Origin: a virus | Length of the DNA: 64,000 nucleotides | Virus record (IMG/VR): IMGVR_UViG_3300036820_000007 | Coordinates: 1 to 64,000 of that record | Direction: 5' to 3' (one strand) | In this document: positions 803 to 40,099 of the stretch, piece after piece | Position numbering within the stretch: position 1 is the first letter of the stretch | How the letters are laid out: each line of letters opens with the position of its first letter | Made by a program: the position numbers and the translations under genes | Notes under the pieces: model-generated | What the model saw: only the letters and a program-made list of their open reading frames with translations | Databases searched by the model: none | Told to the model about the DNA's origin: nothing

Positions 803-818
803 GCGGGTCTCCTCTTGA

Positions 819-1082: not shown

Positions 1083-1159
1083 TCGCAGTCTCCTCTCGAT
1101 TCCATCTTGGGCTGATTACCCAGGCGGACGCATCTGCGAGAGATGCGCCCTGGGGGTGG

Positions 1160-1405: not shown

Positions 1406-1583
1406 TGAGGGTCTCCTCTCGGTTAGTGGTGGTACCACAGGAACCACGCAATCAGGACCAGCGCGATAACTACGGACGACACATGCCTCCGTCTGTTCAT
1501 CTGCGCTGGCGTGGGCGGTGGCGCGGGGTGGTACTCGATGCCGCGCACGATCATGCGTCCCAGCATTTTTGCCTCCTCTTTTC

Positions 1584-2972
1584 CTAGTCGACTTCGCCGT
1601 CGGCGCCTGTCTCGGATGTCACGCCCGTCACACCCGTCTCGCCTGTCTCAAAGAAGTCGTCCAGGTCGTCCGCGTCCCCGTCGAACAGGGTCCGCGTGTC
1701 GTCCAGGTCGTCCTCGTCCTCATCTTCCGGCGTGTCGGGCTCCTTCGGCAGCCGCTGGGCAGCGATGCGGTCGATGTCCCTCAGCCAGTAGCCGCGCGCC
1801 TGGTCCGGGCAGATGTGCCGGGGGAGCCGCTCCGGCCGCACGGGCCGCATGGCGTCGGCGATGAAGTCCGCCAGCGCCTTCGGCGACATGCCCTCGTACA
1901 GCGGGCTGCGGAACTCCTGGACCGTCTCCACGATGAGACGCCCGGGTACCGGGTCCGTGCCGATCTTCCACGCGGCCAGCTGGATGTCGCGGATCGCGGT
2001 CTGCTTCGGCGTGAGCACCGGCTGATCTGCCTGGTCGATGGCAAGGTCCAGGAACGCCGAGAGGGCGCGCCGTGGCCAGTTTCCGCCAGCTATAGCGGCA
2101 CAGGCCAGGAGCGGCTCCCAGATCTCACGCCGCCGGCCGGTCAGCTTGGGGTGCAGCCCCTTGGCCCGGAACCGCTCCAGCTCGGCCAGGCGGCCTCGTA
2201 CCCAGCAGGACAGCGCGTCGCGCAGCAGGTCAGTCTGCGGGTCATGCTCGCGCACCGTGTAGTCGCAGCGAGGGTGCCCCACCTGCATCTTGATGACCAG
2301 GCAGCGAGAGCGGATGTCGTCCGGGACTGCCACCCCTCGGCCGGCCATGCCTGCTGCGGTGAAGATGTCGGCCTGCTCCGCTACGCGGTTAACCGAGAAG
2401 CTCTGCGTTGCCTTCTGCTTGTAGCCCTTGCGCAGGACCTTGCCGATCGGCGCGCCAGCCCCGGCGCGGCCCGACTTGCCGAACACATCTGAGATCTCGT
2501 CGATGATGATGGTCGGCTTCATGTCCGGCGGGCAGGCCAGCTTGGAGCGCAGCGCGTCCGGAGTCGCGTCCCCGTCCCACTGGTTGGCCGACAGGCCCCC
2601 GACCCGGGCGAGCGATTCCGACTTGCCCGAGCCCATCTCGCCGGCCAGCAGCAGCCGCGGCGTGGCGGGGAAGGCCTGCAGGCCGTGGGTGTGCGCTGCC
2701 CAAAGTGTCATGACGTCCAGCTGTGCCGCAGTGGCGTCGATGAATTTGGCCAGGAATTCCCGGCACTCATCCAGGACTGCCGCCGGGTCGGGCCCTATTC
2801 CGTCCCGCGTGTTGTCCGCGTCAATCTGGGCTACGGTCGCGTCTGCCAGCGCGGTTGCTGCGCCTGCCTCCGCGACGGCGGAGCGGATGTCGCCGTCGTC
2901 AGCCAGCACGGTCCCGCGCAATGTTCCCCCGAACATGGCGGGCGACGGCCGGTCAGTTGTCATTGTCGTCAT
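1584..2972 (-). CDS. DUF3631-like P-loop NTPase (replication/primase-helicase associated)
   Basis: Walker A GEMGSGKS, Walker B IIIDE, DDIRSRC and RRREIWEPLL motifs, acidic C-terminal tail. Confidence 0.75.
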   Translation of the reverse strand: MTTMTTDRPSPAMFGGTLRGTVLADDGDIRSAVAEAGAATALADATVAQIDADNTRDGIGPDPAAVLDECREFLAKFIDATAAQLDVMTLWAAHTHGLQAFPATPRLLLAGEMGSGKSESLARVGGLSANQWDGDATPDALRSKLACPPDMKPTIIIDEISDVFGKSGRAGAGAPIGKVLRKGYKQKATQSFSVNRVAEQADIFTAAGMAGRGVAVPDDIRSRCLVIKMQVGHPRCDYTVREHDPQTDLLRDALSCWVRGRLAELERFRAKGLHPKLTGRRREIWEPLLACAAIAGGNWPRRALSAFLDLAIDQADQPVLTPKQTAIRDIQLAAWKIGTDPVPGRLIVETVQEFRSPLYEGMSPKALADFIADAMRPVRPERLPRHICPDQARGYWLRDIDRIAAQRLPKEPDTPEDEDEDDLDDTRTLFDGDADDLDDFFETGETGVTGVTSETGADGEVD

Positions 2973-3009
2973 GATCTGTGCTCCCCTCCCTCTCTCACGT
3001 TCGTAAATG

Positions 3010-3044
3010 ACTATACCCCCCGTGGCAGCCTAGTCACTTGTGAC
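3010..3044 (-). promoter_or_regulatory. candidate promoter (GTGACT-16-TATAGT) overlapping palindrome GTCAC-TT-GTGAC
   Basis: Upstream of the DUF3631-like gene; near-identical 22-mer recurs at 23956-23977. Confidence 0.45.
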
Positions 3045-3126
3045 GCGCAAACACATGCCTGATCTCTGCACACCCCGGCAGGTACCAGGCATGAGCAGGT
3101 ACCTGCGGGGGTGAACCGGGACCGGG

Positions 3127-3423
3127 CTAGCTGGGCGTGGCGTCCTCTTCCGGTGCGCACTGCCCGGAGGCCAGGTACGTAGCCGCGCTGGCTACGGGCG
3201 CCGCGCGGAGCTGGCTCACTGCCGTGTCCAGCGACCGCAGCGCGTCCTGGTAGTAGGCCGCAACTAGATCGATCGCTTCCTTGCGTCCCTCCGGCGTCAG
3301 CCACACCGTGTCGATTGCGCGCTGCGCCATCCGCAGGCGGTTTACTGCCTGGCCTGCGTTCTCAACGGCCAGGACGGCCGCGTCCTCGATCGTGGACAGG
3401 GCCTCCTTCTCAGTGGGTGCCAT
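3127..3423 (-). CDS. hypothetical protein
   Basis: ATG 3423 after GAGAGGAG. Confidence 0.6.
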   Translation of the reverse strand: MAPTEKEALSTIEDAAVLAVENAGQAVNRLRMAQRAIDTVWLTPEGRKEAIDLVAAYYQDALRSLDTAVSQLRAAPVASAATYLASGQCAPEEDATPS

Positions 3424-3461
3424 GCTGGTCTCCTCTCGACTTGATGAAGCGCTGGTCAGCG

Positions 3462-3851
3462 TCAGTCCCGCGGCGGGGAACCTCGCCACGGCCCGTATTG
3501 CCTGCCGCCCGGATTCACGTCCACGCGCGGGAGCGTGCTCAGGTGAGCTGGCCGGAGTGCCATGCGCACGACGGCCTGGTGCTCGCTCGTAGTGCTGGAG
3601 TAGCGGACATCAGGCAGCCACCATGCATCCACATCGCCCGGCCCCGCCGCGGGAACGTGCCATGCGATTGGCGTCTCGTAGCTGAACACCACGTAATCGG
3701 CGTCCCGCAGGAACCGGTGATACTGCGCGGGCAGGTCACCGCATCCGGTGGCGCCGCCGTCCTCGGTTGGCCGGCCGCTTAGCCAGCGATCCCGGAACTC
3801 CGCACGCGCCGCGATGGCATCGTGCGGGCTAACCCGTTTTGCTGCCGTCAT
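3462..3851 (-). CDS. conserved phage hypothetical protein (YVVFSYETPIAW / YSSTTSEHQ)
   Basis: ORF, RBS, motif pattern familiar from actinophage early proteins. Confidence 0.7.
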   Translation of the reverse strand: MTAAKRVSPHDAIAARAEFRDRWLSGRPTEDGGATGCGDLPAQYHRFLRDADYVVFSYETPIAWHVPAAGPGDVDAWWLPDVRYSSTTSEHQAVVRMALRPAHLSTLPRVDVNPGGRQYGPWRGSPPRD

Positions 3852-3928
3852 GCTGATCTCCTCTCGGTTCTGCCTCTTAGCAGGCACGGCGCGGGCACGA
3901 GTCGCGCCCGGCCGAACCGGTTAAGCGG

Positions 3929-4180
3929 TCACTGAGCTGCGGGCTCCATGGAGATCGCGCCGCCCTGGAGAATCTCCCCGTTGTTGCCGTACCACATTGA
4001 GTCGACGCGGATAACCGCGCCCGTCTGCCGATGGGTAAAGACGGCTTCCGCCATTCCCTCGGCTGCCTCGACTTTGCAGGTGTACTGATCGAGCGGCAGG
4101 CCGAAGCCGGTAAGCCAGTCCGCTCTTAGCTGCTGTTCGATGCGCCGGTTAAGCACGGCGCCGCTGAGCGCGCGAGGCAT
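3929..4180 (-). CDS. hypothetical protein
   Basis: ORF abutting upstream gene. Confidence 0.55.
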   Translation of the reverse strand: MPRALSGAVLNRRIEQQLRADWLTGFGLPLDQYTCKVEAAEGMAEAVFTHRQTGAVIRVDSMWYGNNGEILQGGAISMEPAAQ

Positions 4181-4183
4181 GAC

Positions 4184-4588
4184 CTAGAGCCTCTCGGTGT
4201 GCCAGAGGTAGGCGTCGTACTTGTCACCGAGGAACTGCCGCAACTTGATCGTCTGCGCCTCGGTCTGGTCCCAGACCCTCTCCGGCTTCCGCGAGTCGGT
4301 GTCCCACCCGAATTCGCTGGCCCAGTCCTCGAAGCCGTCCGCGTTCTCGAAGCTGGCGGCCTCGCTGGCCAGGGAGTCCAGAACCTCGGCCGCCTCGGGC
4401 TCGCCCGTGAGTGCTGGCCCCATGCCGTAAGGCACCGTCATCTGCCGGCGTCCCATGCGCAGGGTCACCCGGTACCAGTTGGCCCGCTCGTGCTGGGGCC
4501 GGTCCTGATCCCAGGCGCTCGCTGGCGGGTCGGTCATCACTGACTCTGCCGTGATCTTGTCTCGCTGCACGCGCTCTAGCATGTCCAT
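4184..4588 (-). CDS. conserved phage hypothetical protein (FEDWASEFGWDTDSRK)
   Basis: ORF with GAGAGGG RBS. Confidence 0.7.
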   Translation of the reverse strand: MDMLERVQRDKITAESVMTDPPASAWDQDRPQHERANWYRVTLRMGRRQMTVPYGMGPALTGEPEAAEVLDSLASEAASFENADGFEDWASEFGWDTDSRKPERVWDQTEAQTIKLRQFLGDKYDAYLWHTERL

Positions 4589-4613
4589 TGCTTGCGTGTC
4601 CCCTCTCGGCGTC

Positions 4614-4681
4614 AAGTGCCAGGGCGGCACTTCCGCCGGTCAGGTACAGGATCGACCTGAGCGACGGGCTAGCAGCCCTGG
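4614..4681 (-). ncRNA. intergenic pseudoknot element, GCUAG-linker subtype
   Basis: 5' AGGGC pairs with loop GCCCU of the AAGUGCC/GGCACUU hairpin. Confidence 0.7.
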
Positions 4682-4687
4682 TTAGTG

Positions 4688-4969
4688 CTACTCGCCTTTG
4701 ACCTTGACCACGCGCACCGGTACAGCGTCGATCTGCCAGCCGCCCGGCGCGCTCGGGTCGCGGTGGTGGCCGTGCCAGAGGCCGCCGCGCCCGTCTCCGC
4801 CCCGGCGTTCGTCGTCGGGAATGACGTCAACCCGGGTCATTGGCCGGCCGCGCTCGTCGGTCAGTCCTACGTGGATCTCCACCACGCAGCCGTCTGTTTC
4901 GATGTGCATGACGTTCCCGGAGCGGTTGTGCCCCGCGTAGAACGTTTCCCGCCTCATTGGCGCAGGCAT
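4688..4969 (-). CDS. hypothetical protein
   Basis: ORF with GAGAGGAG RBS. Confidence 0.6.
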   Translation of the reverse strand: MPAPMRRETFYAGHNRSGNVMHIETDGCVVEIHVGLTDERGRPMTRVDVIPDDERRGGDGRGGLWHGHHRDPSAPGGWQIDAVPVRVVKVKGE

Positions 4970-5244
4970 TATGCGGTCTCCTCTCGTGTTGGGTTACTGT
5001 CCGTTGCTACGGGGATGACCACCCCGAGTTCCCGCAATTCCTCCAGGACCGCCGGGGAACTGACCGCGAGGGCAACCGTCCTCCCGGCCGCATCGGTCCC
5101 CAAAACCAGCACCGGGTCCGGGCCGAGATCACGGGTCATTTCTCTGGTGACCGCATCGATATTCATGAAACCTCTTTCCGGTTCTGTGCCTGGCGGCACA
5201 TCCCCGCCTACGGCTTGGTACCGCAGGCGGGAAATGCGCCAGGA

Positions 5245-5514
5245 TCAGGAATAGCGCGCGTTGCGCCGGTCTTCCTTGGCCGCGCTCTCGCTGTAGTCGT
5301 CGTCCTCGTCCTCTTCGGCATCGCTGAACATGGACACCGGGAGCGTTCCGCTGCCGCCGCAGATCGCGCACGGCCCCTCGTAATCCGGTTCGTCGTACGT
5401 ACGGTGCGACTCGCCCCGGTAGGTGCTCTGCCCGCTGCCGTCACAGGTTGTGCAGTAGGTCAGCGGGTTGCCGTCCTGGTCGGTGCCCACGATGGGCAGA
5501 TCGTCAAGCGCCAT
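5245..5514 (-). CDS. small Zn-finger protein (DnaJ-like CxxCxGxG x2)
   Basis: CTTCDGSG and CAICGGSG; RBS GAGAGGAGG. Confidence 0.65.
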   Translation of the reverse strand: MALDDLPIVGTDQDGNPLTYCTTCDGSGQSTYRGESHRTYDEPDYEGPCAICGGSGTLPVSMFSDAEEDEDDDYSESAAKEDRRNARYS

Positions 5515-5575
5515 GGCGGCGCCTCCTCTCGCTGATGCTCTTTGAGTCTCGCCCTGCCTGCCGACAGTCAGCGGT

Positions 5576-5920
5576 CTACGTGGTGCCGGTTATGTCGTAC
5601 TCGCCGATAAAGTTGCCATGGACGCCGCGGACCTTGCCCGTGCCGGTGCCTCCCTGCACGGTATTGGCGACCGTACGCAGAATGCCTCCCAGCGCATCTG
5701 GATGCGCGTCCACGCGATTGTCCAGCCTGATCTTGAGGTTGAACTCCGGCCCAGCGGGGGCCTTCGGGCCTGGGGCCTCGCCGCCGTTGAGGTAGTGGAC
5801 GCGCCCGGCGGCCTCTTCGGTACTGCCGTGGTCGCTCTCCGGCTCCCACCTGCCGTCTGGCCCGTAGAAGCCCACCGTCCAGAGCTGAGGCTCGCTGTGG
5901 ATGTAAACCCATGTCGTCAC
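5576..5920 (-). CDS. hypothetical protein
   Basis: GTG start after GAGAGGAG; SEPQLWTVGFY...VHYLNGG. Confidence 0.7.
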   Translation of the reverse strand: MTTWVYIHSEPQLWTVGFYGPDGRWEPESDHGSTEEAAGRVHYLNGGEAPGPKAPAGPEFNLKIRLDNRVDAHPDALGGILRTVANTVQGGTGTGKVRGVHGNFIGEYDITGTT

Positions 5921-5939
5921 TGCTGTCTCCTCTCATGTT

Positions 5940-6000
5940 GGGGTGAACACCCCGGCACGGTGCGGAGACTCGCGCCTCCGCGCCATGCCCGAACGTTCAC
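5940..6000 (-). ncRNA. intergenic pseudoknot element
   Basis: GUGAAC pairs with GUUCAC; GCGA tetraloop on long stem. Confidence 0.7.
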
Positions 6001-6393
6001 GCGCTCAGCGCCTCCGGCCGGGTGGCCTCCGCAAAGTGCTCCCGGTACTTCCGGTGTGCTGCCTGCTGGTTCATGCGCTCCCCGAACGGCTCCCCGCATT
6101 CGCAGATCCCTGCGTACCCCGGGTAGGTGGGGATGGAGAAATACCGGTGACCGGCATTGCGGGGGAGCGGTGGTGCGGCCTGCCCGGCCGCTGGCGCGTT
6201 CACGGCCTGAACGCGGCGAGGTGGCGAAGGTCGGCCCCGTCCCGCGTGGCTGCCGCTCGCTGTGACCGCTGGCCAGCAGCGAGCCGGATGGCCGCGCGCC
6301 GTACTCGTGGCGGACTTCCCAGAGCGCGCTCGGCTGCTCGGCGCTGTCTGCGCTCGGCTTCCCTCATTGACGGCATGGTGTCTCCTCTCGAAT

Positions 6394-6452
6394 CGCCCCG
6401 TGCGGGCGGGACGTGGCGACCCCCGGAGGGATCGCCCATCCTGTCGGCACGG
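6394..6452 (-). ncRNA. intergenic pseudoknot element
   Basis: CCGUGC pairs with GCACGG at the CGCCC/GGGCG hairpin. Confidence 0.7.
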
Positions 6453-6510
6453 TGACCGCTCAGTCACAAGTTACCATAGCGACCCCGCTCGGCTCGTCAG
6501 TTACGATGGG

Positions 6511-6843
6511 TCAAGGTTTCTCGTCCCACCCTTCGCATCCGGGACTGCCGCACGCGAGCACGCAGGCGCACTCCTCGCCCGGCGCTTTGCCCAGGCAGCG
6601 GGGACACGGCTTGCTGGCCTCTAGCCAGGCGTCGCGGTCGCTGGCCGGCTCCCAGTCGGCGCCGGTCCATTCCAGGCGTGCGCCGCTGTCGCCCTCGATT
6701 ACTGGCGCGTGGGCGTAGCGGGTGGCGTGAAACTGCGGGTCAACCGTGGCCAGCTGTCCGCACGTGAGGCACTTCTTAGCCTCCGCCCGGAGCGCGGCCA
6801 GCTGCTCGGCGGTGATCTCGCCGAAGGTGTCATTCCACGACAT
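6511..6843 (-). CDS. Cys-rich hypothetical protein
   Basis: CxxC pairs; ATG 6843. Confidence 0.55.
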   Translation of the reverse strand: MSWNDTFGEITAEQLAALRAEAKKCLTCGQLATVDPQFHATRYAHAPVIEGDSGARLEWTGADWEPASDRDAWLEASKPCPRCLGKAPGEECACVLACGSPGCEGWDEKP

Positions 6844-6850
6844 GGCGCAC

Positions 6851-7153
6851 CTACCTGACGTAGTGGTAAGCCGCCGGGCCGCCGCTCCACATGCGGGCGG
6901 TCCCGTGGTCCAGGTCGGTAAGGTGCGTCCGCTGCCTCCCGTTGCCGTGGCGCCAGGGGATAGCGGACGGGTCGGCCAGGATTTCGGCCAGCGACCACCG
7001 CCGCGTGACGTTGCCGAAGTTGTCGAGCGTGGCCGCGCCGGTGATCTTCCACTTGCCCGATGCCGTGTTGTACGGCGCTGGCAGTGACGGCCGGGCAATC
7101 GTGCCGTCGTCGTAGAGAGTCATGCTCTCCTCGTTATTAACGATCGTTCGCAC
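6851..7153 (-). CDS. hypothetical protein
   Basis: GTG 7153 after GAGAGGAG. Confidence 0.6.
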   Translation of the reverse strand: MRTIVNNEESMTLYDDGTIARPSLPAPYNTASGKWKITGAATLDNFGNVTRRWSLAEILADPSAIPWRHGNGRQRTHLTDLDHGTARMWSGGPAAYHYVR

Positions 7154-7227
7154 TGCTGTCTCCTCTCGCCTGCCCAAGCGGGCAACGGCCAGCACCCCGC
7201 CTCCATGGGGATGCTGCCCGCAACGCG

Positions 7228-7533
7228 CTAGGGTCGCCGCAACGCAGCCGCACGCTTCTCGTAAGCATCCGGGGGAGTGCGGAAGATCACCCGCAGCCGG
7301 TAGTGGTAGGGCGCGCTTTCCAGCTCGCGCCGCAGTGCCGCGTACTCGCCCGGGTTCGCCGGCCTGGTGGTGCCGATCACGTACGCCGGATCGGCCGCGC
7401 CGTGCTGGCCCATGTGCACAAACGACGTGCACTTGGCAGGCTCGCCCACCTCGGCGGGCAGGTACGGGAATAGCGCGATGATCTCGCCGTCCCGGAACTT
7501 GCGGAACATGACCGCCGTGATCTCTTCGGTCAT
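7228..7533 (-). CDS. conserved phage hypothetical protein (IIALFP / HMGQHGAA)
   Basis: ORF; recognisable small-protein motif. Confidence 0.7.
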   Translation of the reverse strand: MTEEITAVMFRKFRDGEIIALFPYLPAEVGEPAKCTSFVHMGQHGAADPAYVIGTTRPANPGEYAALRRELESAPYHYRLRVIFRTPPDAYEKRAAALRRP

Positions 7534-7536
7534 CGG

Positions 7537-7728
7537 TCAGCCCACGTCCCGGATGGTGACGTTATAGCGCGGCCCGTCGTCCGGGTCCGCACCGGCCGGT
7601 GTCACGATGAACTCCGCGACCCCGGCGCGCTCGTCTACCTCGAATGCTTCCCCCAGCTCGAAATCCGGGCTGGCATCGATCGCCTGCGCGATCTTCTCGG
7701 CGTCTGTTGATACGTTCGTCCATGCCAT
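7537..7728 (-). CDS. hypothetical protein
   Basis: ATG 7728 after GAGAGGAG. Confidence 0.6.
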   Translation of the reverse strand: MAWTNVSTDAEKIAQAIDASPDFELGEAFEVDERAGVAEFIVTPAGADPDDGPRYNVTIRDVG

Positions 7729-8059
7729 CGCTTGCTGTCTCCTCTCGCTGCCCGTACGGGCAGGACAGCCGGCCGGAACATGCCGGCCGGCATCCTGAAC
7801 GTGCGCGCTGGCATCGGTCAGGCCGCCGCGTAAGCGACCTGGCCGTTCCGTACGGTCGCCCGCGCTACTGGCGGGCGCCCATCCTGTACCGGGTGAACGT
7901 GCTGGCCGACGTTGCCCGACCCGCAGGCCGAGCCGTCGCAATCCACGATGCACGCACTAAGCGGCGGGTCGAAAATCATTGCCGTTGCCTTTCTCTCGAT
8001 TGCCCGTACGGGCATGACTCTCGGCCAGGGGAGCCCTAGCCGAGATCAAACGCGCGCGG

Positions 8060-8395
8060 TCAGCTTGGCGGTATCTCGGTAATGCGCAGGAACACAACGC
8101 GCCCGTGCCCGCGCTCCGCCTCTGCCTTGGTCCCGTACGGAAAGCACATTTCCAGCTGCCCGCGCGTATGCCAGATCATGCAAGGCTCGGTGTCCGCCTC
8201 GTGCCACTGGTAGGCGAACCCCATCCATCCCCAGTGCGTAACCGTGTCGCCCTCCGGCACCTCTTCCACGAGCACGCGGAGGATCGGTCCTTTCAGGCCA
8301 TGCATCCGCACGTAGCGCTCCGAGCCGATCGTGTGAAACCGGCCATCGTCGTACCGGTGGGCGTGCATCTCCCAGGACTGCCCTGGATCGGTCAC
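8060..8395 (-). CDS. hypothetical protein
   Basis: GTG 8395 overlapping upstream stop. Confidence 0.6.
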   Translation of the reverse strand: MTDPGQSWEMHAHRYDDGRFHTIGSERYVRMHGLKGPILRVLVEEVPEGDTVTHWGWMGFAYQWHEADTEPCMIWHTRGQLEMCFPYGTKAEAERGHGRVVFLRITEIPPS

Positions 8396-8853
8396 CGTTC
8401 CCCCTCTCGCGTTACCAGGGCCGGCGGATACCCGCCGTCTGGCCTTTGCTCGTCCTCGAAAAACGCGCACAGTCCCACCAGCCATGCCGGGGGATGGCTA
8501 ACCCCCTTGCGGGTGTACGCCCAGACCTGCCCGCCTGGCTTGCCGTCCGGCCGCACGCGAACCGTGGGGGACTCGTAAGGGTCCTCCTCGCGGAACTTGG
8601 TGTTAAGCGCGGCCATGAACAGGTCGTGATGCACGCCGGGCCCGATCTCCAGCACCCATCCCGTTACCGGCCGGATCTCGTAGCTGTACTTGCGGCTGAT
8701 GTGCTCCTCGCGCCATTTGACGCTGGCCTCGGCTTCGGGGCGGGTGAACGTGTCGCCCCACGGGTCGGTTGCCATGTTGTCCAGTCGCCTTGTCGCCCCG
8801 GTGTTGTTGTCGCGCTCGATGACTAGGCAGCGCTCCTCGCCGTGCTCGGTCAA
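8392..8853 (-). CDS. hypothetical protein
   Basis: TTG 8853 after GAGAGGAG. Confidence 0.6.
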   Translation of the reverse strand: MTEHGEERCLVIERDNNTGATRRLDNMATDPWGDTFTRPEAEASVKWREEHISRKYSYEIRPVTGWVLEIGPGVHHDLFMAALNTKFREEDPYESPTVRVRPDGKPGGQVWAYTRKGVSHPPAWLVGLCAFFEDEQRPDGGYPPALVTREGER

Positions 8854-8873
8854 AGCGTTCTCCTCTCGGTTGG

Positions 8874-8940
8874 GATGCCTAGGCGGCATCTCTCCGGCGC
8901 TCGTATCCGCAGACACGAGCGCCAGAGGCTAGCGGCCTGG
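8874..8940 (-). ncRNA. intergenic pseudoknot element, GCUAG-linker subtype
   Basis: AGGC pairs with loop GCCU of GAUGCC/GGCAUC. Confidence 0.7.
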
Positions 8941-9144
8941 GCGTACGGTCAGTAGCTCAGCGAGCCGTCGCCGATGCCTTTTGCGACCTGGTCATAGTCG
9001 GGAAGCTCGGCGCCGTCCCGGCTCTTCTTCAGGCGCATGAGTTCGGCAGCCTCCACCTTGCGCGCGCCGGCCGCCTCGAAGAAGTCCCGGAACTCCCCGA
9101 TCGAGCACTTGCCGTTGCTGTCCACCCTGTGTCTCCTCTCGTTA

Positions 9145-9214
9145 GATGCCGAGGTGGCATCCCCGCGAGGCTCGCACCACAGCGGGCGCGAGCATCACGG
9201 GCTAGCTACCTAGG
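9145..9214 (-). ncRNA. intergenic pseudoknot element, GCUAG-linker subtype
   Basis: AGGU pairs with loop ACCU; compensatory change relative to the 8874 copy. Confidence 0.7.
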
Positions 9215-9298
9215 TCTGCGCGCTAGCGCCCGTTCCGCGAATGCCACGACAAGCGCGGCGAGGATGTTGTCGGCATGCCAGATGATCCGGCGCACGGG

Positions 9299-9514
9299 CT
9301 AGCCTTCGGCCGTGATCTCGGCGATCTGCTCGTCCGTGGCACCCGTCGCCTTGGCCAGCCGGACGGCCAGATCGTGCGGCAGGTCACCGCGCCAGATAGC
9401 GTCCTCCGGCTGCGGGTAGGTTCCCGCCTCCAGCTCTTTGATCACGCTGTCGAGCTGCGGCCCCGAACAGACGATCGCCGGATGCGGCATTGCAAACTTG
9501 CGCTTCATGCTCAT
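9299..9514 (-). CDS. hypothetical protein
   Basis: ORF with GAGAGGAG RBS. Confidence 0.55.
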   Translation of the reverse strand: MSMKRKFAMPHPAIVCSGPQLDSVIKELEAGTYPQPEDAIWRGDLPHDLAVRLAKATGATDEQIAEITAEG

Positions 9515-9528
9515 GTCTCCTCTCGAAT

Positions 9529-9586
9529 TGCCCTAGCAGGGCATGGCGCCCCATCGTGCGAGACGATGGGGGCCAAACGCCGCTAG
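9529..9586 (-). ncRNA. intergenic pseudoknot element, CGUU-linker subtype
   Basis: CUAGCGG pairs with CUGCUAG (G-U only on minus strand). Confidence 0.7.
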
Positions 9587-9910
9587 CTACCTCCCGAGCC
9601 GCGCGTCGCGCTGCGCGTCGTTCTCCACCTGGAGGATGTAGCCGCTCTTGTCGTGCATGGGGACGCGGTAGACGCGCTTGCCCACGTCGCCCGGCAGAAC
9701 GCGGCCCATGAAGTTGGCCACGGGCCAGACTTGCCCGAAGGCGCCGATGGTGGCGCGCCCCACGTCGCGGGGTCCGATCTCGAAAAAACGGCCCGCAGGA
9801 ACCGGGCACAGCTCCACCTCGGTGCCATCGACCGACCGGCCGACGAGCGTGCGGCCCGCTTGAAGGCTGCGCAGCTCTTCCGTGGTTACTTCAATTACGA
9901 TCCTTGCCAT
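9587..9910 (-). CDS. hypothetical protein
   Basis: ORF with GAGAGGAG RBS. Confidence 0.65.
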   Translation of the reverse strand: MARIVIEVTTEELRSLQAGRTLVGRSVDGTEVELCPVPAGRFFEIGPRDVGRATIGAFGQVWPVANFMGRVLPGDVGKRVYRVPMHDKSGYILQVENDAQRDARLGR

Positions 9911-9926
9911 GATCGGCTCCTCTCGG

Positions 9927-9984
9927 TGCCCCTAGCGGGCAGTGAGCCGTACCGGTTGCCCGATACGGCCGGACAGCTCGCTAG
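9927..9984 (-). ncRNA. intergenic pseudoknot element
   Basis: CUAGCG/CGCUAG; 11-bp stem with 2 G-U pairs and a GCAA tetraloop. Confidence 0.7.
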
Positions 9985-10160
9985 CCGCCGTACTTGAGAT
10001 GATGCGCCGGCTTGTCGCCCTCGACTACCGGCAGAATCGCCGCGTCGATCTCGGCGCGGTTGGCGCGGATGAAAGCGCGCTTGGACTGGCGCGAGCGGCG
10101 CCACCAGTCGTAAAGGCCCTCGTCGTTGTCAATCCACTGCTCGCGCTCGGTGTCGTTCAT
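9981..10160 (-). CDS. hypothetical protein (WIDNDEGLY)
   Basis: ATG 10160. Confidence 0.6.
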   Translation of the reverse strand: MNDTEREQWIDNDEGLYDWWRRSRQSKRAFIRANRAEIDAAILPVVEGDKPAHHLKYGG

Positions 10161-10331
10161 ACCGCGATCACCTCGATATCCTTGTATCCCTGGCTGGCCA
10201 GGTGATCGGCCAGCGAATCGGCTTCCCGCTTCGGCCAGGTCTCTTTGCCATCGCCGTCTACCCACGCGATGCCATCCACGATGACCTGATACATGCTGTC
10301 TCCTCTCGCACGGCCGGACGTCTGGATTCCG

Positions 10332-10514
10332 CTAGTTGCGAGCCGGCGTGTTCTCGGCAGTCTCCAGCTCGCATGAAATGAACTTTGGCGCCTCCGCTGT
10401 GCCTTGCATCAGGTAGGCAAGGCGCCAGATAGCGCTATCCCGATCCGCGGCCCGTACCTGGTTAGCGCGCTTGCCGCCCGCCATGTCTTCCCAGGTCACG
10501 ACGTAGGACTCCAT
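10332..10514 (-). CDS. hypothetical protein
   Basis: ATG after GAGAGGAG. Confidence 0.55.
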   Translation of the reverse strand: MESYVVTWEDMAGGKRANQVRAADRDSAIWRLAYLMQGTAEAPKFISCELETAENTPARN

Positions 10515-10602
10515 AGCCTGTCTCCTCTCGCGTACCCCGTACGGGCACCCTCCGCAACCGCTGGCACCCTGGCCAGCGATCACGGGCAGCGTCCGGTCGT
10601 GC

Positions 10603-10779
10603 TCACACTGCCGCTAGAATGCGCTCCGCTGCGGCAGGTACAGTCTCGATCGCCGCAGCCTGCCTGCCGTGGCGGTAGCCGTAGCTGTAGCTTGATCCGG
10701 GCGCCCCGTCATTCGGCCATGGCCTGCCTGCCATGCCATCCGCGTAGCCGTCCCTCTTCCCTGCCTGGTAAGGGGTCAT
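10603..10779 (-). CDS. hypothetical protein (YxxGxxDG repeats)
   Basis: ATG after GAGAGGAG. Confidence 0.55.
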   Translation of the reverse strand: MTPYQAGKRDGYADGMAGRPWPNDGAPGSSYSYGYRHGRQAAAIETVPAAAERILAAV

Positions 10780-10869
10780 TGCTGTCTCCTCTCGCGCGTG
10801 CCTGCCATCGGGCACACTCCGCGCGGCCTGGTCCATTGCTGAGCCAGGCATCACGGGCAGCGTCCGCGG

Positions 10870-11265
10870 CTACTTGCCCTTGAGTGCCCCGCTGATCAGC
10901 TTGCCGAGCTTTTCCAGCTGGCCGCGTACCTCGCTGATCATGTCGGGCACTGGGTGAGTGTTCACGATCTCATCCATGCCGACGTGCCAGCCGGAATGCT
11001 GGCCTCCGCGGAACGGCTCCGTCTCCGCCGGCATGTCGCCGAACTCGACGGACCAGAGCGAATCCTCCGCACCGTCGATTTCCTGGCCATCGATCACCGG
11101 CCGCACAATGACTCCCACGTACTGCCAGTCGCCGCGCTTGAATGCCGCCTTGTCCGACGCGCTGTAGCAGTCCGCGTCATCGGGGGATGAGTCGCAGTCG
11201 GGCGAGATCATCACGCGGTAGCTGATGCCATCGCGCGTGATCGTGCGCTCCTCTATCAGGTCCAA
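10870..11265 (-). CDS. conserved phage hypothetical protein (WQYVGVIV / DSLWSVE)
   Basis: TTG 11265 after GAGAGGAG. Confidence 0.65.
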   Translation of the reverse strand: MDLIEERTITRDGISYRVMISPDCDSSPDDADCYSASDKAAFKRGDWQYVGVIVRPVIDGQEIDGAEDSLWSVEFGDMPAETEPFRGGQHSGWHVGMDEIVNTHPVPDMISEVRGQLEKLGKLISGALKGK

Positions 11266-11356
11266 TTGGTGCTCCTCTCGGTGCGCCTTCTGTCGGGCAC
11301 GCTCCGCAGCGTTCATCCCCCCAATCCGGGGGAGTGAGCGCCACGGGCAGTGTCCG

Positions 11357-11641
11357 CTAGCGCCGGTAGGTGCCGATCAGCTGGAAACGCCAGTTGATCG
11401 ATCCGCCGATGTCCGGCAGCGCGGCCGGCGGTTCGGCTGTCTCCAGCTGCGCGGCCGGGGAGCCGTAGGACACGATTCGCAGTTCGCCCGCATTGCGGCT
11501 TGACAGATCGTGGTTTTCGTACATCGCCGCGCCGTCCCCGCGTGCCAGCCATCGGCCAACTATGGCCATGACTTCGGGCGCCTGGTCCTCGTAACGCTCG
11601 CTCACCCATGCGCCGAACGTCTCATCTGTGAACGTGATCAC
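11357..11641 (-). CDS. hypothetical protein
   Basis: GTG after GAGAGGAGG. Confidence 0.65.
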   Translation of the reverse strand: MITFTDETFGAWVSERYEDQAPEVMAIVGRWLARGDGAAMYENHDLSSRNAGELRIVSYGSPAAQLETAEPPAALPDIGGSINWRFQLIGTYRR

Positions 11642-11663
11642 TTGCGTGCCTCCTCTCGGTTAG

Positions 11664-11728
11664 TCCCCGTACGCGGGAACATGGCAGCCTGCCGGACTAG
11701 CCCAGCAAGCGCCATGAACTAGCGTGCG
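11664..11728 (-). ncRNA. intergenic pseudoknot element
   Basis: ACGC pairs with loop GCGU; AGUU linker. Confidence 0.65.
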
Positions 11729-11733
11729 CCTGG

Positions 11734-12042
11734 TTACTCGGCCGTCGGGAAGCGTTCCGAACCCTCGTCAGCGCTCCCGTTGTGGTCGCCCCTGTAGATG
11801 CACTGCGTGTAGCCGGCTGTGCAGTTACAGCGTGACTCGCACGCAGGGCAGTCGTACAGCCTGCCTGGCTCGTGCGGGTAGTCGGCATGCGGCGGCCCGT
11901 CCAGCTCCCCACGGTCGGCAGCGTCAAGAATCGCGCCGATGGCCGGCGCGCTTGCCGTGAGTTCCGCCTGGAACTTGTCCAGGGCGCGTTCGGTAGCCGC
12001 GCGCCGCTCCTCTGGCGTCATGTCGCCTAGCGTCTTGCCCAT
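11734..12042 (-). CDS. Cys-rich hypothetical protein
   Basis: ATG after GGAGGAG; HADYPHEPGRLYDCPAC. Confidence 0.6.
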   Translation of the reverse strand: MGKTLGDMTPEERRAATERALDKFQAELTASAPAIGAILDAADRGELDGPPHADYPHEPGRLYDCPACESRCNCTAGYTQCIYRGDHNGSADEGSERFPTAE

Positions 12043-12130
12043 GGCCGCATCTCCTCCCGGTGCAGATTTTCTGCACACTCCTGCGTGCTCACACCCCAGA
12101 GCATGAGCACGCAGGGCAGTGCAGACTGCG

Positions 12131-12460
12131 CTACAGCGCGGCCAGGCAGTTGCCGCACTGGCCAGGCATCTCGCCGCCAACGGGCCAGTTGTACGTCTGG
12201 CATGCCGGGCATTCCCGGCCGCGCTCACGGTGCCAGGCGATCCAGGCCGGCCAGTTGGGTGATTCGCGGAAGTCCCGCGGCAGCGTTCCCCCAGCCGCGA
12301 ACCATGCGTCAAGCGCGTCGTGGTAGCTCGTGGCGCTCTCCAGCATCGCTGCCGCAGTGTCCGCGTATCCCAATTCCAGCATTGCGCGAATGTCGCAATG
12401 GCTGTCGTTGCACGGGTGATCCGTCTCGACTGCCGTTGCCAGGTCATCCATGGTTGGCAT
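12131..12460 (-). CDS. Zn-ribbon hypothetical protein
   Basis: CPAC...CGNC; RBS. Confidence 0.6.
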   Translation of the reverse strand: MPTMDDLATAVETDHPCNDSHCDIRAMLELGYADTAAAMLESATSYHDALDAWFAAGGTLPRDFRESPNWPAWIAWHRERGRECPACQTYNWPVGGEMPGQCGNCLAAL

Positions 12461-12671
12461 TGCTGTCTCCTCTCATGTGTGCATGTTCCGCACACTCCAC
12501 AGTGCCCGCACCTAGCGGGCACCATGGGCAGTGCGGACTGCGCGTTACCGGCGTCCTAGAACGTGGTAACGAAACCCGCGACCGCGGCACCGGCAGGCAG
12601 CCCGGTGCAGCTTCCGGTTGTGCAGGTAACTGCGGTAATGGCGCAAGTTCACCGTGCTATCTCCTCTCACC

Positions 12672-12743
12672 ATGCCTACCGAACGTAAGCACGTGGCCAG
12701 CAACGGGGGAGTGCTCCCCGCTCCTGGCCATGCGCCGGCGTCC
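12672..12743 (-). ncRNA. intergenic pseudoknot element, CCGG-linker subtype
   Basis: GGACG pairs with CGUUC. Confidence 0.65.
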
Positions 12744-13271
12744 CTACCGATCTTCCGCGAACAGTGCCAGCCGGTCGGCAGCCGTGGCGATGATCGCGGT
12801 TGCGTCTGTGTCACAGCCGCGCGTCGGCAGGAAACCCGCTAGCTCGCGTGCCATCTGAGCGTGCGTCCTGGGTGCGCCCGACGCGAGGTCATCGCCGTTG
12901 GTGATCTCGGTTCCGTCCGCGTACACCGCGTAGTCCCACCCGTTGTGAGCGTAGGACTGGCCAACCGTCCCCCCGCCATGCGCCGAGATTGCGATGATGA
13001 GTGTTGGCTCATCGCTCGGCGCGCGGTTCATTGCGGGAACCGTGACCTTGTATTCATGCTGTGCCAGCGTGTAGCCGTACAGCGTGTGATCATCCATGGC
13101 GCGTAACTCCCCGTCGTTTCCCTGCAGAGACTGAGGCCACGGGCACGGCGCTATCCCTTTTGCGATCAGCTCGGCATCATGATTACGCAGGTAGTCTGCG
13201 TAATCCTTGCCGAACATCTGCCCGGCCTTCCGGTAGCCCCTTTCGCACTCGGGGCGTTCCGTTACCGCCAT
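12744..13271 (-). CDS. hypothetical protein
   Basis: ATG after GAGAGGAG. Confidence 0.65.
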   Translation of the reverse strand: MAVTERPECERGYRKAGQMFGKDYADYLRNHDAELIAKGIAPCPWPQSLQGNDGELRAMDDHTLYGYTLAQHEYKVTVPAMNRAPSDEPTLIIAISAHGGGTVGQSYAHNGWDYAVYADGTEITNGDDLASGAPRTHAQMARELAGFLPTRGCDTDATAIIATAADRLALFAEDR

Positions 13272-13292
13272 TCCGCTGTCTCCTCTCATTGC

Positions 13293-13356
13293 CGGCCGGT
13301 CTAGGCCGAGTGAGCACGCAGGCTAGCTACAGGCTGCGTGCTCAACTGCCGACCGG
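13293..13356 (-). ncRNA. intergenic pseudoknot element, GGCAGU-linker subtype
   Basis: CCGGUC pairs with GACCGG; related copy near 14725-14790. Confidence 0.65.
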
Positions 13357-13910
13357 ATAGCCGCTCATCATCCCTCGTGCCCCTCCTCCTCGGTATGAGT
13401 GCAGCGATGCTCGCACGTTCTCTCGTGATGCTCGCAACCGCAGCACTCGCAATGGTCGGACCTGCCCTCGGTGGCGCCACAGTGACACCACCATTGACCC
13501 TCGCGCTGTTCCATACGCCCCGTCATCGCCGTCTCCTCTCGCTAGCGTGTCCGTTATGCATTAAGCCTGACCAGGTACACCGTGCTTTTGCTTCCGCAGA
13601 CGGTCCAGGCCGCCTGCCTCCCTGGTACAGATTCGGCGAATACTCCCATCACCGCTGGATTCTCGCCTTTGCCGGTTTCGCCCGGCACGGTCGGCGCATG
13701 CACTAACCGCCCACTTAGGCGGCACGATGGTCACGCGCCGGCGTTGTGCGCGCTTGCCCTGTTGCCAGGGGCGCGCGTTTCTCCCTCATCCCGCATTGGC
13801 CAGGTTCGAACCATCACGCCGATCGGCAGTTATCGCCTAGCGGTCTGCCAGGGCCGTAGCGCTGGCCTGCCTAACACTGCCTGGCTTGCGGGACCTGGCG
13901 GGCCCCCCTC

Positions 13911-14120
13911 TCAGAAAGATATGTCGCCCCACGCTGACCAGTCCTGTACCAGCGTGGCCATGTGATCCTGGAACGCCTGCCAGTCGGCCGCGGTCCAGTC
14001 CTTACGAGGCTTGGTCTGCCAGTCCATGGCGTCCCCCTCTCGCTCGCGCAGTTGCAGCTCGTTCGTGATTTCGTAAAGCGCTTCGTGCAACTCGTCCGTC
14101 GTCATCTTGCCGACGTTCAT
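13911..14120 (-). CDS. hypothetical protein
   Basis: ATG after GAGAGGAGG. Confidence 0.6.
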   Translation of the reverse strand: MNVGKMTTDELHEALYEITNELQLREREGDAMDWQTKPRKDWTAADWQAFQDHMATLVQDWSAWGDISF

Positions 14121-14138
14121 TGCAGCCGCCTCCTCTCG

Positions 14139-14210
14139 GTGCCCACAGAGCGTAAGCACGTGGCCCGGCCAGCGAACCTGAGCACGCTGGCCGGCCATGT
14201 ACCGGCGCTA
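14139..14210 (-). ncRNA. intergenic pseudoknot element, CCGG-linker subtype
   Basis: AGCG pairs with CGCU; compensatory relative to the 12672 copy. Confidence 0.65.
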
Positions 14211-14561
14211 CGGTCCTTCCGTTGCTACCAGCCCGGTACGCGTCCACAGGATCTGATCCCGCGTTCCGGTGTACCAGAAGCATCCCCGCACGCTGAATAC
14301 TTGCTCGCATGCGACTTCCGGTGCTCGCTGAACACACACGTAGGTGTGCCTGTCGATCCCCATGGACGCGCCGCGCTTGCACGCTGCCATGATCTGCCGG
14401 CGCGTGGCGTGGTGAACCGTCGCCGCGTGAGCGCCGCTCAGCCCGTAGCCAGCCAGGCCGCCGGCGATGGCAACCGCAACTGCGGCCGTCCTGACGATTC
14501 GCCGCGACCGGCTAGCCGGTGCAGCATGGCGCCTGGTGACCTTACGGTGATTCCCCCGCAT
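14208..14561 (-). CDS. putative secreted protein
   Basis: Basic N-terminus, hydrophobic stretch, AHA signal-peptidase-like site. Confidence 0.55.
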   Translation of the reverse strand: MRGNHRKVTRRHAAPASRSRRIVRTAAVAVAIAGGLAGYGLSGAHAATVHHATRRQIMAACKRGASMGIDRHTYVCVQRAPEVACEQVFSVRGCFWYTGTRDQILWTRTGLVATEGP

Positions 14562-14793
14562 TGCTGTCTCCTCTCGGTTAGCGCTGATCAGCGCTGCACG
14601 GCGCGCAATCTCGCCGGCCTGGTGGCCGGTGCCTAGGGTGCTTTACCTCCTCCCCGTAGCGGCCTGGAGTGCCTAGGATCGCTCTCCAGGGATTGCGTGC
14701 CATGCCGAACGTGACCAGTGTTCCGATCCGGCCCGGTCAAGGCCGAGTGGGCGCACGTACATGACGCGTGCGCTCAACTGCCGGCCGGACTTG

Positions 14794-15069
14794 CTACAGC
14801 GTCTCGCCCCGCCCGTGGAAAGCCAGGCTGTTCCACGGCATCGTTGCCGTTGTTCCGCCGTCAAACTCCACGGTGACGAAACCGGGCTGCTGCGCGTGCT
14901 GATCGATGACTGTTCCCTCGTCGCCGCTCTTGCGCAGCGTGACGCGCGTCCCGTTCGGGATGAGGGCCGGCCGTTCCCCGCGCGGCCCGCGTGGGCCGGC
15001 GTGAAAGAAATGGCACACCGCGCAGTTGCCCGGATCGGTGCCGTCATCGGTGAACTCGTGAAGCCCCAC
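14794..15069 (-). CDS. hypothetical protein
   Basis: GTG after GAGAGGAG. Confidence 0.55.
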   Translation of the reverse strand: MGLHEFTDDGTDPGNCAVCHFFHAGPRGPRGERPALIPNGTRVTLRKSGDEGTVIDQHAQQPGFVTVEFDGGTTATMPWNSLAFHGRGETL

Positions 15070-15086
15070 AGCTGTACTCCTCTCGC

Positions 15087-15153
15087 TTGCCCTAGCGGGC
15101 AAGGAAACGGCCAGCACCGGTCAGGGTGCTGGCCCTTCGGCCAACTCGCTAGG
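15087..15153 (-). ncRNA. intergenic pseudoknot element
   Basis: CCUAGCG pairs with CGCUAGG; AGUU linker; 10-bp stem. Confidence 0.7.
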
Positions 15154-15382
15154 TCAGGCCGTCGCCGTTGGCGTCCGCGAGCATGATCAGCAGCTCAGCG
15201 ACGGTTGTCACGTCTGTGTAGCGGGTCACGGCGATGCCCGTGCGGTCCGCCAGGACACGCCGCAAGCCGGCCACGGTGTGACCGCCGAGCGACTGATCGA
15301 TCGCGGCGAAAACTGCGCTGGTCACTGCAAAGTGACCGTGAGCATTGGTCAGGCGCAAGATGCCGCGCTGCCTGTCGTTCAT
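15149..15382 (-). CDS. hypothetical protein, first gene of left-arm operon
   Basis: ATG after GAGAGGAG. Confidence 0.6.
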   Translation of the reverse strand: MNDRQRGILRLTNAHGHFAVTSAVFAAIDQSLGGHTVAGLRRVLADRTGIAVTRYTDVTTVAELLIMLADANGDGLT

Positions 15383-15394
15383 CGTTCTCCTCTC

Positions 15395-16028
15395 GATACC
15401 GGGCATGATCGCCCGTGAGAGCACTGAGCGGCGGTATCCGGAAGGCGATCCCCGGCCGCGCGCCTGCGAGTTAGCCCCTAGGCGATTCGCCTAGGCTCGG
15501 TGCGCCTCATGCCGCATGCTCAGTGCTCACACGGGAGCACCGGAACCGCAGGCACGTGCAAGTAGCTGCTTTCGCGCTCGCGGTTCCGGTGTCCCAGTTA
15601 GAGGAGTGCCGGCCATGTCAGGGTGCTGAGCATCGGGCGCTTTCGCGCCGGGAACTGCTCAGGATGCCGATGTGCTGACTCGCGCTTACCTTCCGGGATC
15701 GGTGTGCTGATCCTCGCGGTTTCCCCTATGCGGAAGGTCTTGCCTGACATGGCCGGCTGATCTCACCCGTACCGCTTACCGAGGCGGTACACCCGTCTCA
15801 GCAGTGCGGGCGAGAAGTCTTGTCTTGCTATGTCCCCGGAACGCCGGGGGTTCGGATACTTGCGGCTAGCCGGGACCGGGACACCCGCCAGGCTCTTAAC
15901 CCCTGGCGTCTCACCTTGTCGGCCCTTGCGGGGCGAATCCAGCTGGCGCGTGCTTCAGTTCTCTTGCCCAACCGTGACCCCTTGCGGGGCGGGGCGCCGG
16001 TGCCTGTCACTGCGTGTCCGGCCGATCG
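15395..16028 (-). ncRNA. candidate large structured RNA / 5' leader (~640 nt)
   Basis: Nested long helices (15608-15622 with 15743-15757, 15 bp; 15538-15549 with 15580-15591; 15412-15429 with 15518-15535); several GAAA/GCAA tetraloops on the minus strand; no credible ORF. Confidence 0.65.
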
Positions 16029-16034
16029 ATAGCT

Positions 16035-16062
16035 ACTTTACCCGGGGGTGGCCGAAGTGCAA
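16035..16062 (-). promoter_or_regulatory. sigmaA/HrdB-like promoter TTGCAC-16-TAAAGT
   Basis: Consensus-like hexamers directly upstream of the structured leader. Confidence 0.55.
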
Positions 16063-16489
16063 CCCGTTTTCGCGAAGTTTCTCTGAATCCCTTACGGCAT
16101 AGGGGTTTCTTGGCGTGGCGCCGGGCGTGTCGCTGCGGAGGTGTCTGGCTTGAGGTCAGATCGGCGCGATTTCGCGCGGGTGTGGGTGGGTGCTGAGCTC
16201 GCGTCTGCGCACGGTGGAGCTCAGCACCGTACCCAGCCATCGTGACCGGCATGAATGACCACCCGCCCGTCGGCAGGGTAGTCACATCTGACGTCAAGCG
16301 TTAACTTATGAGAATGAACCTTATCCGTAGTGCACGCGGGTGTCGGTGGGCAGCTACGGGGGATTGTCCGTTAGTATCACCCTATAGCCACTTTAAATAC
16401 CGCATAACCCCCCAAATTTACCCTCCGCGACCCTCAAAAATTTCGCGCATGGTGTTTTCCGCGCGCATATAGCCCCCCGGGAGCAAGGT

Positions 16490-16738
16490 GTGGACTTGGG
16501 CGGCATGACCCTGGTCCTTCCATTCGATTCCGATGAGGCCGAATTCCGCCGTGGTGTCGAAGTTGGCATGCTCTGGACCATGGTGCGTGAGCGCGAGCCT
16601 GCGCCGGCGGCCATGATGATCCACTCCGATAACGCGGAGATGGTGATCCGGATCGCGGAGGCATGCGAGCTTCCGTTCACAGCGGCCCCGGCCAGCGAGG
16701 ACTGGCTTTACATCACGATCGGCCCGAAGGCACCCTGA
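16490..16738 (+). CDS. hypothetical protein
   Basis: ORF with phage-like codon usage. Confidence 0.55.
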   Translation: MDLGGMTLVLPFDSDEAEFRRGVEVGMLWTMVREREPAPAAMMIHSDNAEMVIRIAEACELPFTAAPASEDWLYITIGPKAP

Positions 16739-16821
16739 CCACTTCAGCAGGCCCGTGCGTGCATGTAGCGTTCTCAGGTCACGATGGCCCCAGCGGAGGC
16801 CTAATAGCCTCTGGGCTATCG

Positions 16822-17109
16822 CTAGATGCTGCCGTGCATGCCCGTGAACACGATCAGTGGCCAGGGCCCCGGCTCTCGCCATGATCCGTCGGCCATGAAG
16901 CCCCACGCCCAGTTCTGGATGTAGCCGCAGCCGCAGTGCCAGCCATCTTCGGCGGCCTGCAGTACCTCGCGCCCGGCGAGATGATCCGGCCCCCTGCAGT
17001 CTTCATTGCCGCAAGTGAACGGATGCCCAGCGCCGGAGTGCTGGTAGCCGTTCAGGCTCTCCACCTGGGCGGCTGTGAACGGGGCCAGCGCCCGGATGCC
17101 AGTGCTCAT
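16822..17109 (-). CDS. hypothetical Cys/His protein (HPFTC...WHCGCGYIQNWAW)
   Basis: Conserved-looking phage small protein. Confidence 0.6.
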   Translation of the reverse strand: MSTGIRALAPFTAAQVESLNGYQHSGAGHPFTCGNEDCRGPDHLAGREVLQAAEDGWHCGCGYIQNWAWGFMADGSWREPGPWPLIVFTGMHGSI

Positions 17110-17147
17110 GCTCCCCATCTTCCCTGATGACAGCCGGGGGTGCGCCC

Positions 17148-40091: not shown

Positions 40092-40099
40092 TCAGTCAG

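Follow-up and report, generated by a model that had tools for sequence, protein, structure and literature searches.

A candidate structured mRNA leader with a conserved 3' module and a lineage-specific 5' part heads the leftward small-gene operon of an actinophage-like virus

What is the role of ~640 nt of strongly folding DNA, with no credible open reading frame (ORF), lying between a promoter and the first gene of a long viral operon? The stretch belongs to the IMG/VR virus record IMGVR_UViG_3300036820_000007 (98,488 bp, G+C content of ~65%, completeness of 83% according to CheckV), the first 64 kb of which (64,000 nt) constitute the window, that is, the whole piece of DNA that was analyzed. 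Between ~3.4 and 15.4 kb, the window is packed with small minus-strand genes, which form a leftward block, while terS-like, ThrRS and terL genes are found on the plus strand from 17.1 kb. The region of interest is part of the 1.1-kb divergent gap that separates the first leftward gene from the first rightward ORF (16490). The original prediction, made from the letters alone, left two main options, namely a large phage noncoding RNA (ncRNA) and a cis-acting leader of the leftward operon. The account that we favor, to which we would give an even chance of being correct as a whole, is that the stretch is a ~646-nt 5' untranslated leader of the leftward small-gene operon of an uncultured soil actinophage-like virus, composed of a conserved 3' module and a lineage-specific 5' accretion, and probably cut by RNase III. 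A search of sequencing runs returned a single run with this sequence, its probable source sample, whose contigs display no variants, and no RNA run containing the sequence. No tRNA or tmRNA was found.

The coordinates of the features discussed here are collected in Table 1. The announced TTGCAC-16-TAAAGT promoter is indeed present on the minus strand and is kept, as TTGACA-17-TAATGT, at the same place in the metagenome contig L021, a relative of this virus, with a spacer core (GCCACCCCCG) identical to that in the window. A simple consensus promoter scan did not list the window's version, and the spacer has no other copy within the window. From this promoter, we infer that transcription starts near 16028 which, together with the positions of the Shine-Dalgarno (SD) sequence and ATG of the first gene, gives a leader of ~646 nt. 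The SD sequence, GAGAGGAG, is common to ~27 left-arm genes. From 16028 to this SD, the minus strand is devoid of terminator-like sites, and the leader is continuous into the first gene.

Table 1. Features of the leader region, with positions in the window
Feature	Position	Strand	Remarks
Terminator-like small hairpin followed by a T-run, just beyond the promoter	16089..16113	+	Stem kept in L021, loop differs; weak on its own (z -1.3, -0.4)
Promoter: TTGCAC (16062-16057), 16-nt spacer, TAAAGT (16040-16035)	16035..16062	-	Sigma-70/SigA-type; from sequence
5' segment, H1-H3	16034-15866 (leader part 15866..16028)	-	z +0.4 (minus), +1.4 (plus); not above shuffles; absent from L021
H4, small hairpin CCCCGG-CGUU-CCGGGG	15834..15849	-	z ~-1.9; absent from L021
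H5, 20-pair hairpin	15762..15814	-	z -4.3; absent from L021
H6, three-way junction closed by a perfect 15-bp helix (15608-15622/15743-15757)	15608..15757	-	z -6.6; absent from L021
Anti-Shine-Dalgarno CUCCUCU	15600..15606	-	Predicted pairing with AGAGGAG (15393-15387)
H7, hairpin with apical 13-mer GCAGCUACUUGCA (15569-15557)	15538..15591	-	z -7.1; 13-mer identical in L021
H8, long hairpin; basal duplex of 18 bp with one U-U mismatch (15412-15429/15518-15535)	15412..15535	-	z -5.0
Short hairpin GGGC-GAUCAU-GCCC	15401..15414	-	From sequence; kept in L021
SD GAGAGGAG (15394-15387), 4-nt spacer, ATG at 15382 of the first leftward gene	15380..15394	-	From sequence
First leftward gene	15149-15382	-	77 aa, orphan

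The claim that these ~640 nt hold no credible ORF was borne out. Minus-strand ORFs in the leader are at most 60 aa long, lack an SD and use rare codons, while those on the plus strand, of 70 and 90 aa, have the appearance of spurious frames in GC-rich DNA. An exact look-up of the ORFs of the region in the protein collection returned no match, a test that is weak owing to start-codon choice. One minus-strand ATG ORF of 50 codons (15598-15750) coincides exactly with H6, starting at an ATG within the 5' arm and ending at a TAA immediately past the 3' arm. This ORF has no GAGAGGAG-type SD, shows a GC3 of ~73% and is absent from the protein collection, and we judged it to be noncoding. As for the opposite strand, we considered an antisense RNA that would end at the conserved terminator-like hairpin beyond the promoter, and rejected it because no conserved plus-strand promoter could be seen by eye.

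The region folds better than expected by chance, though not evenly along its length. Folded as minus-strand RNA, the whole region reaches -314 kcal/mol, compared to -274 kcal/mol for shuffled sequences (z -5.85). Its complement folds even better (-335 kcal/mol, z -6.55), and folding energy thus does not tell which strand matters. The signal is carried by H5-H8 (15814-15412), the 3' module having a z of -7.4, while the first 170 nt at the 5' end fold no more stably than shuffled sequences (z +0.4). In a genome-wide folding scan of 300-nt windows, the picture is likewise uneven, with 15301-15900 being among the most stable parts and 15700-16200 being unremarkable on the minus strand. The same scan picked out other strongly folded 300-nt windows, at 39901-40300 (plus strand) and 30801-31300 (minus strand), and further along the genome at 84501-86400 and 88701-89100, with GC-corrected folding energies 2.5-3.9 SD below the genome trend. 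The named helices are all there: a repeat finder recovers 15608-15622/15743-15757 (15 nt, 100%), 15412-15429/15518-15535 (18 nt, 94%) and the arms of H7, and the inner stems are found in the minimum free energy (MFE) fold. The count of "about five" GAAA/GCAA tetraloops was too high, since only three GNRA tetraloops sit on stems of at least 3 bp (~1.1 expected) and two on stems of at least 5 bp (~0.16 expected). These stem-borne loops are all on the minus strand, and the enrichment is mild.

Could the whole ~640 nt be a free-standing large structured ncRNA like GOLLD, ROOL or OLE? Its size, its phage context, the strong overall folding score and the few GNRA-capped hairpins would be in keeping with this. 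Rfam, including GOLLD, ROOL, OLE, HEARO, raiA and group I/II introns, returned no match at the gathering score over the whole 64-kb window, and at E<=10 (15000-16500) only chance miRNA-type matches of 15-23 bits. Similarly, blastn revealed no similarity of the region to 50,697 phage records or to plasmids, and a search of IMG/VR with terS, the 77-aa gene, a terS alignment and four leader DNA patterns uncovered no relative of the leader. The relatives present in IMG/VR are distant, with terL proteins 50-58% identical (L002-L011), and none of them resembles the leader in sequence. L002, the best one, shares the divergent layout, but has its promoter immediately ahead of small genes and no long leader. 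The protein database contains terS homologs at 68-92% identity, the closer ones being at 85-92% (P0003-P0006). GTDB genomes searched with the terS alignment yielded nothing. No homolog was found either among 301 Actinomycetota genomes, where the leader gave only chance-level matches of 20-45 nt. Moreover, two thirds of the region are missing from L021, the 5' third shows no structure, folding is equally good on the two strands, and the RNA has no discrete 3' end since, lacking a terminator, it runs into the SD of the first gene. This large-ncRNA option, which the original prediction had put first, is therefore very improbable. The leader resembles GOLLD, ROOL and other large ornate RNAs in size class and phage occurrence. 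Unlike them, it has no covariance-model match, is not conserved even in a close relative, is built mostly from palindromes that are simple and perfect, not from conserved junctions and pseudoknots, and is continuous with an mRNA. A very strong folding score in GC-rich phage intergenic DNA is thus, by itself, no sign of a conserved large ncRNA.

The most telling comparison is with L021 (3,431 nt, terS 77% identical), the only readable relative compared, which comes from a single metagenome scan. The two sequences share a series of colinear blocks, namely the connector after the first gene, the SD and short hairpin, both arms of H8, the 13-mer of the H7 loop, the promoter, the small plus-strand terminator-like hairpin and several blocks further upstream. 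Each leader precedes a different, unrelated gene. In the window, 465 nt separate the -10 box from the H7 loop, compared to 36 nt in L021, which therefore lacks 429 nt (H1-H6) and has a leader of ~208 nt instead of ~646 nt. Conservation is consequently limited to the last third of the leader, its 3' ~220 nt, and structural conservation in a related phage, which the original prediction had made a touchstone, was found for this part and not for H1-H6.

Within the conserved part, the stem of H7 is formed by CCGGAACCGC/GCGGUUCCGG in the window and by GGAA(C)GCAC/GUGCUUCC in L021, which produces the same hairpin in both, with three pairs changed on both sides in a compensatory manner. The loop 13-mer, which is invariant between the two, has no other copy within the window. 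The 5' arm of H8 lies within a 21-nt block identical in L021, and the two H8 hairpins share a 13-bp base that is extended by UGAGC/GCUCA in the window and by CGGGGCAGG/CCUGCCCCG in L021, leading to basal duplexes of 18 bp with one mismatch and 22 bp without any, respectively. RNAalifold finds a common structure for the two sequences with 10 pairs changed on both sides, the alignment inside H8 being unreliable. These changes, seen in a comparison of two sequences only, are suggestive of selection on the structure of the 3' module.

The divergent junction displays other differences and similarities between the two genomes. An 82-aa ORF (16490-16738) and the next ~390 nt are missing from L021, with 16478-17135 in the window (659 nt) corresponding to 2418-2554 in L021 (138 nt), which makes for a second indel at this junction. 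Two AT-richer blocks (16378-16398 and 16430-16468, G+C ~0.5) that immediately precede the rightward genes are near-identical in the window and L021; the promoter and control signals of these genes are probably located there. A 14-nt site, GCTTGA(C/G)GTCAGAT, occurs upstream of the leftward promoter as an inverted pair, at 16148-16161 (plus) and 16286-16299 (minus), 124 nt apart. In L021, its core ACGTCAGAT is tandemly repeated at ~2228-2273, as two copies of CTCACGTCAGAT. Within the divergent control region, such a site could serve as an operator, an iteron or a packaging site.

How might the 3' module act on the first gene? A pyrimidine-rich anti-SD just upstream of H7 is predicted to pair with the SD of the first gene, with a probability of 0.92-1.0 in the ensemble of the full leader, and the same pairing is found in the MFE and centroid structures of the 3' module. 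CUCCUC occurs only once on the minus-strand RNA of window 1-17000, despite the ~27 genes with GAGAGGAG. The counterpart in L021, an anti-SD-like CUCUCG, spans positions of about -4 to +2 relative to the inferred start and may be missing from the transcript, so that conservation of the clamp on the SD is uncertain. The short hairpin and H8 are mutually exclusive, because the same GGG is used by the short hairpin and by the 3' arm of H8.

This layout is not confined to the leader, since a long hairpin followed by a short hairpin and the SD GAGAGGAG recurs before ~27 left-arm genes. When leader and inter-gene connectors are compared by eye, GAGAGGAG and a short G/C hairpin are spaced identically in both, and a longer hairpin upstream competes with the short one, which is the layout of the last ~160 nt of the leader. 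In contrast to the connectors, the leader has a much longer H8 (124 nt versus ~30-50 nt), swapped arms in the short hairpin (GGGC...GCCC instead of GCCC...GGGC), and additional elements in H7 with its invariant loop and the unique anti-SD. Moreover, it follows a promoter, while connectors follow a stop codon.

The 5' part is rich in short internal direct repeats, as revealed by the repeat finder. The 13-nt CGCCCCGCAAGGG is present in two identical copies that form GCAA-capped hairpins (plus-strand coordinates 15923-15935 and 15979-15991), and GCGCGAAAGC also has two copies in the 5' part, a third variant being found upstream of the promoter. UCAGCAC units occur three times in H6 and once more in a 12-bp perfect hairpin at 16189-16228; the corresponding plus-strand word GTGCTGA is found 4 times in 918 nt versus 17 times in 98 kb. 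Hairpin modules of the same kind are thus also present upstream of the promoter, at 16160-16228, and their occurrence on both sides of it weakens a purely RNA reading of these modules. Since H6 has 51 Watson-Crick pairs and not a single G-U pair, and since both strands fold equally well, selection at the RNA level is not proven for H5 and H6.

These same properties invite a reading at the DNA level, in which the nested inverted repeats and half-sites of the 1.1-kb gap (GTGCTGA/TCAGCAC and GCGCGAAAGC) would be protein-binding sites, an origin or a packaging signal acting in double- or single-stranded DNA. The equal folding of the two strands, the all-Watson-Crick H6 and the modules at 16160-16228 would fit well, as would the position of the region, which adjoins terS where divergent operons meet, and the 12-13 nt that the outer arms of H6 share with a REP-like palindrome from an Actinomycetota metagenome-assembled genome (MAG). 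Several features are nevertheless difficult to reconcile with DNA sites. With arms 88-120 nt apart and branched interiors, the repeats would make poor cruciforms; H7 and H8 lie between a conserved promoter and an SD and covary like RNA hairpins; the GNRA loops are all on the minus strand; and complementarity between anti-SD and SD is meaningful only in RNA. We therefore think a DNA-level element rather unlikely.

The REP-like palindrome came to light when the pattern of the H6 arms was searched in bacterial genomes, which returned one match (MAG JBKOXJ010000064.1, L022 1605-1741; G006). It is 33 nt long (GGCCATGTCAGGGGTCAGACCCCTGACATGGCC), and MAG and phage show no similarity beyond it. Its 12-nt arm is present in 11 copies in the 1.9-Mb MAG and, at low copy and frequently in pairs with a distance of 21 nt, in 81 of the 301 genomes of the order to which the MAG belongs, where it is ~5 times commoner than a reversed control word. 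The 301-genome tallies include four unpublished genomes (G245, G189, G182 and G066), on which nothing else rests. The match to H6 may be a coincidence.

The extra segment of 405-430 nt might alternatively be a small non-autonomous mobile element, MITE- or REP-derived, inserted just downstream of the promoter. The indel relative to L021 is clean, the segment resembles both junctions, with GGACAC on each side, and its ends show weak inverted similarities (TG(A/T)CAGG), to which the REP-like match in the MAG can be added. The size is near that of the MPME ultra-small mobile elements of mycobacteriophages (Sampson et al. 2009), reportedly 439-440 bp long, with which the segment also shares the character of a ~430-nt presence/absence polymorphism between related actinophage-like genomes. 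Unlike MPME, the segment lacks a 123-codon ORF, is present once only and resembles no phage record by BLAST. More generally, a mobile origin is improbable given that the segment is single copy in a 98-kb genome, turned up in none of the phage, plasmid, IMG/VR and genome collections and contains no transposase-like ORF, and that it is only weakly similar to its junctions and matches the REP-like palindrome over no more than 12-13 nt.

Another view of the 5' 430 nt is that they are non-functional filler, generated by duplications, template-switch palindromes or decayed gene-plus-connector cassettes, only the 3' 220 nt being functional. Their absence from L021, the lack of structure beyond chance in the first 170 nt and the many short direct repeats all agree with this, as do the resemblance of the H6 units to ribosome-site spacers (GAGUCAGCACAUCGGC versus GGAGUCAGCACGAUGGC of L021) and the existence of other indels at this junction, such as that of the 82-aa gene. 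What speaks against it is that H5 and H6 are very stable and free of mismatches, which neutral decay would erode, and that an ungapped ribosome-site matrix scores the H6 units no higher than background. By the same measure, we rejected H6 as a carrier of decoy ribosome sites. We consider pure filler unlikely, while recognizing that it overlaps with the lineage-specific accretion in our preferred account. At the other extreme, H5-H6 (15814-15608) might, after processing at H7 or H8, accumulate as a stable phage ncRNA that displays the three UCAGCAC units as mimics of an SD-start spacer and titrates a defense sensor or a factor, from host or phage, that binds RNA or acts in translation, the outer helix coming perhaps from a host REP-like palindrome. 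We regard this as a long shot.

We return to the leader account, which distinguishes two parts. The conserved module of ~220 nt (15606-15383), made of the pyrimidine anti-SD, H7, H8, the competing short hairpin and GAGAGGAG, would be an enlarged first copy of the hairpin connectors found between downstream genes. The anti-SD clamp, closing around H7 and H8, would keep the first gene's ribosome site locked as long as the transcript is unprocessed. A double-strand-specific nuclease, the RNase III of the host, would then cut H8 within its duplex of 18-22 bp, and perhaps also H6 or H7, which would remove the upstream RNA together with the anti-SD, free the ribosome site and leave a 5' end protected by a hairpin. 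Both the cleavage and the resulting translational control are proposals, built on the anatomy and thermodynamics of the leader and on its conservation and covariation with one relative. The ~430-nt 5' part (16028-15607) would consist of duplicated palindromic modules inserted between promoter and clamp, which include the GCAA and GAAA hairpins, the UCAGCAC units and the H5 and H6 palindromes, and no function of its own is demonstrable for it. A cis-acting processing or regulatory leader, the second option of the original prediction, fits what is kept in L021: a promoter followed by H7, H8, the short hairpin and the SD, with compensatory changes.

If this is true, the ~15-kb array of swappable small genes in this lineage would be headed by an enlarged connector that locks the first ribosome site until processing, and such leaders could triple in length by accreting palindromic modules, which would be useful to know when annotating the early regions of phages. 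No new class of RNA is opened by these observations, because structured and probably processed phage mRNA leaders, and connectors, are of a known kind.

The unmasking of occluded ribosome sites by RNase III is established for adhE and lambda cIII, as are RNase III cuts in lambda and T7 RNAs (PMC5371410), and the lambda N gene leader appears among the references of that paper (Steege 1987). As these systems are presented there, with citations to Steege 1987, Altuvia 1987 and Dunn & Studier 1973, the leader described here resembles the lambda N-gene leader, lambda cIII, E. coli adhE and the T7 early R sites in the great length of the 5' leader or spacer, in the near-perfect duplex, roughly two helical turns long, that adjoins the ribosome site, in the predicted occlusion of that site by structure, and in being an element that is independent of the gene that follows. 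H8 is in line with what is expected of an RNase III-processed leader, a near-perfect duplex of ~20 bp or more by the ribosome site and kept in relatives. In contrast to the lambda, adhE and T7 systems, to which it has no sequence relation, the leader is a proposed, not an established, target of cleavage. It is also three times longer than in its relative, and its clamp is a predicted long-range anti-SD/SD pairing, spanning ~210 nt, that encloses two hairpins.
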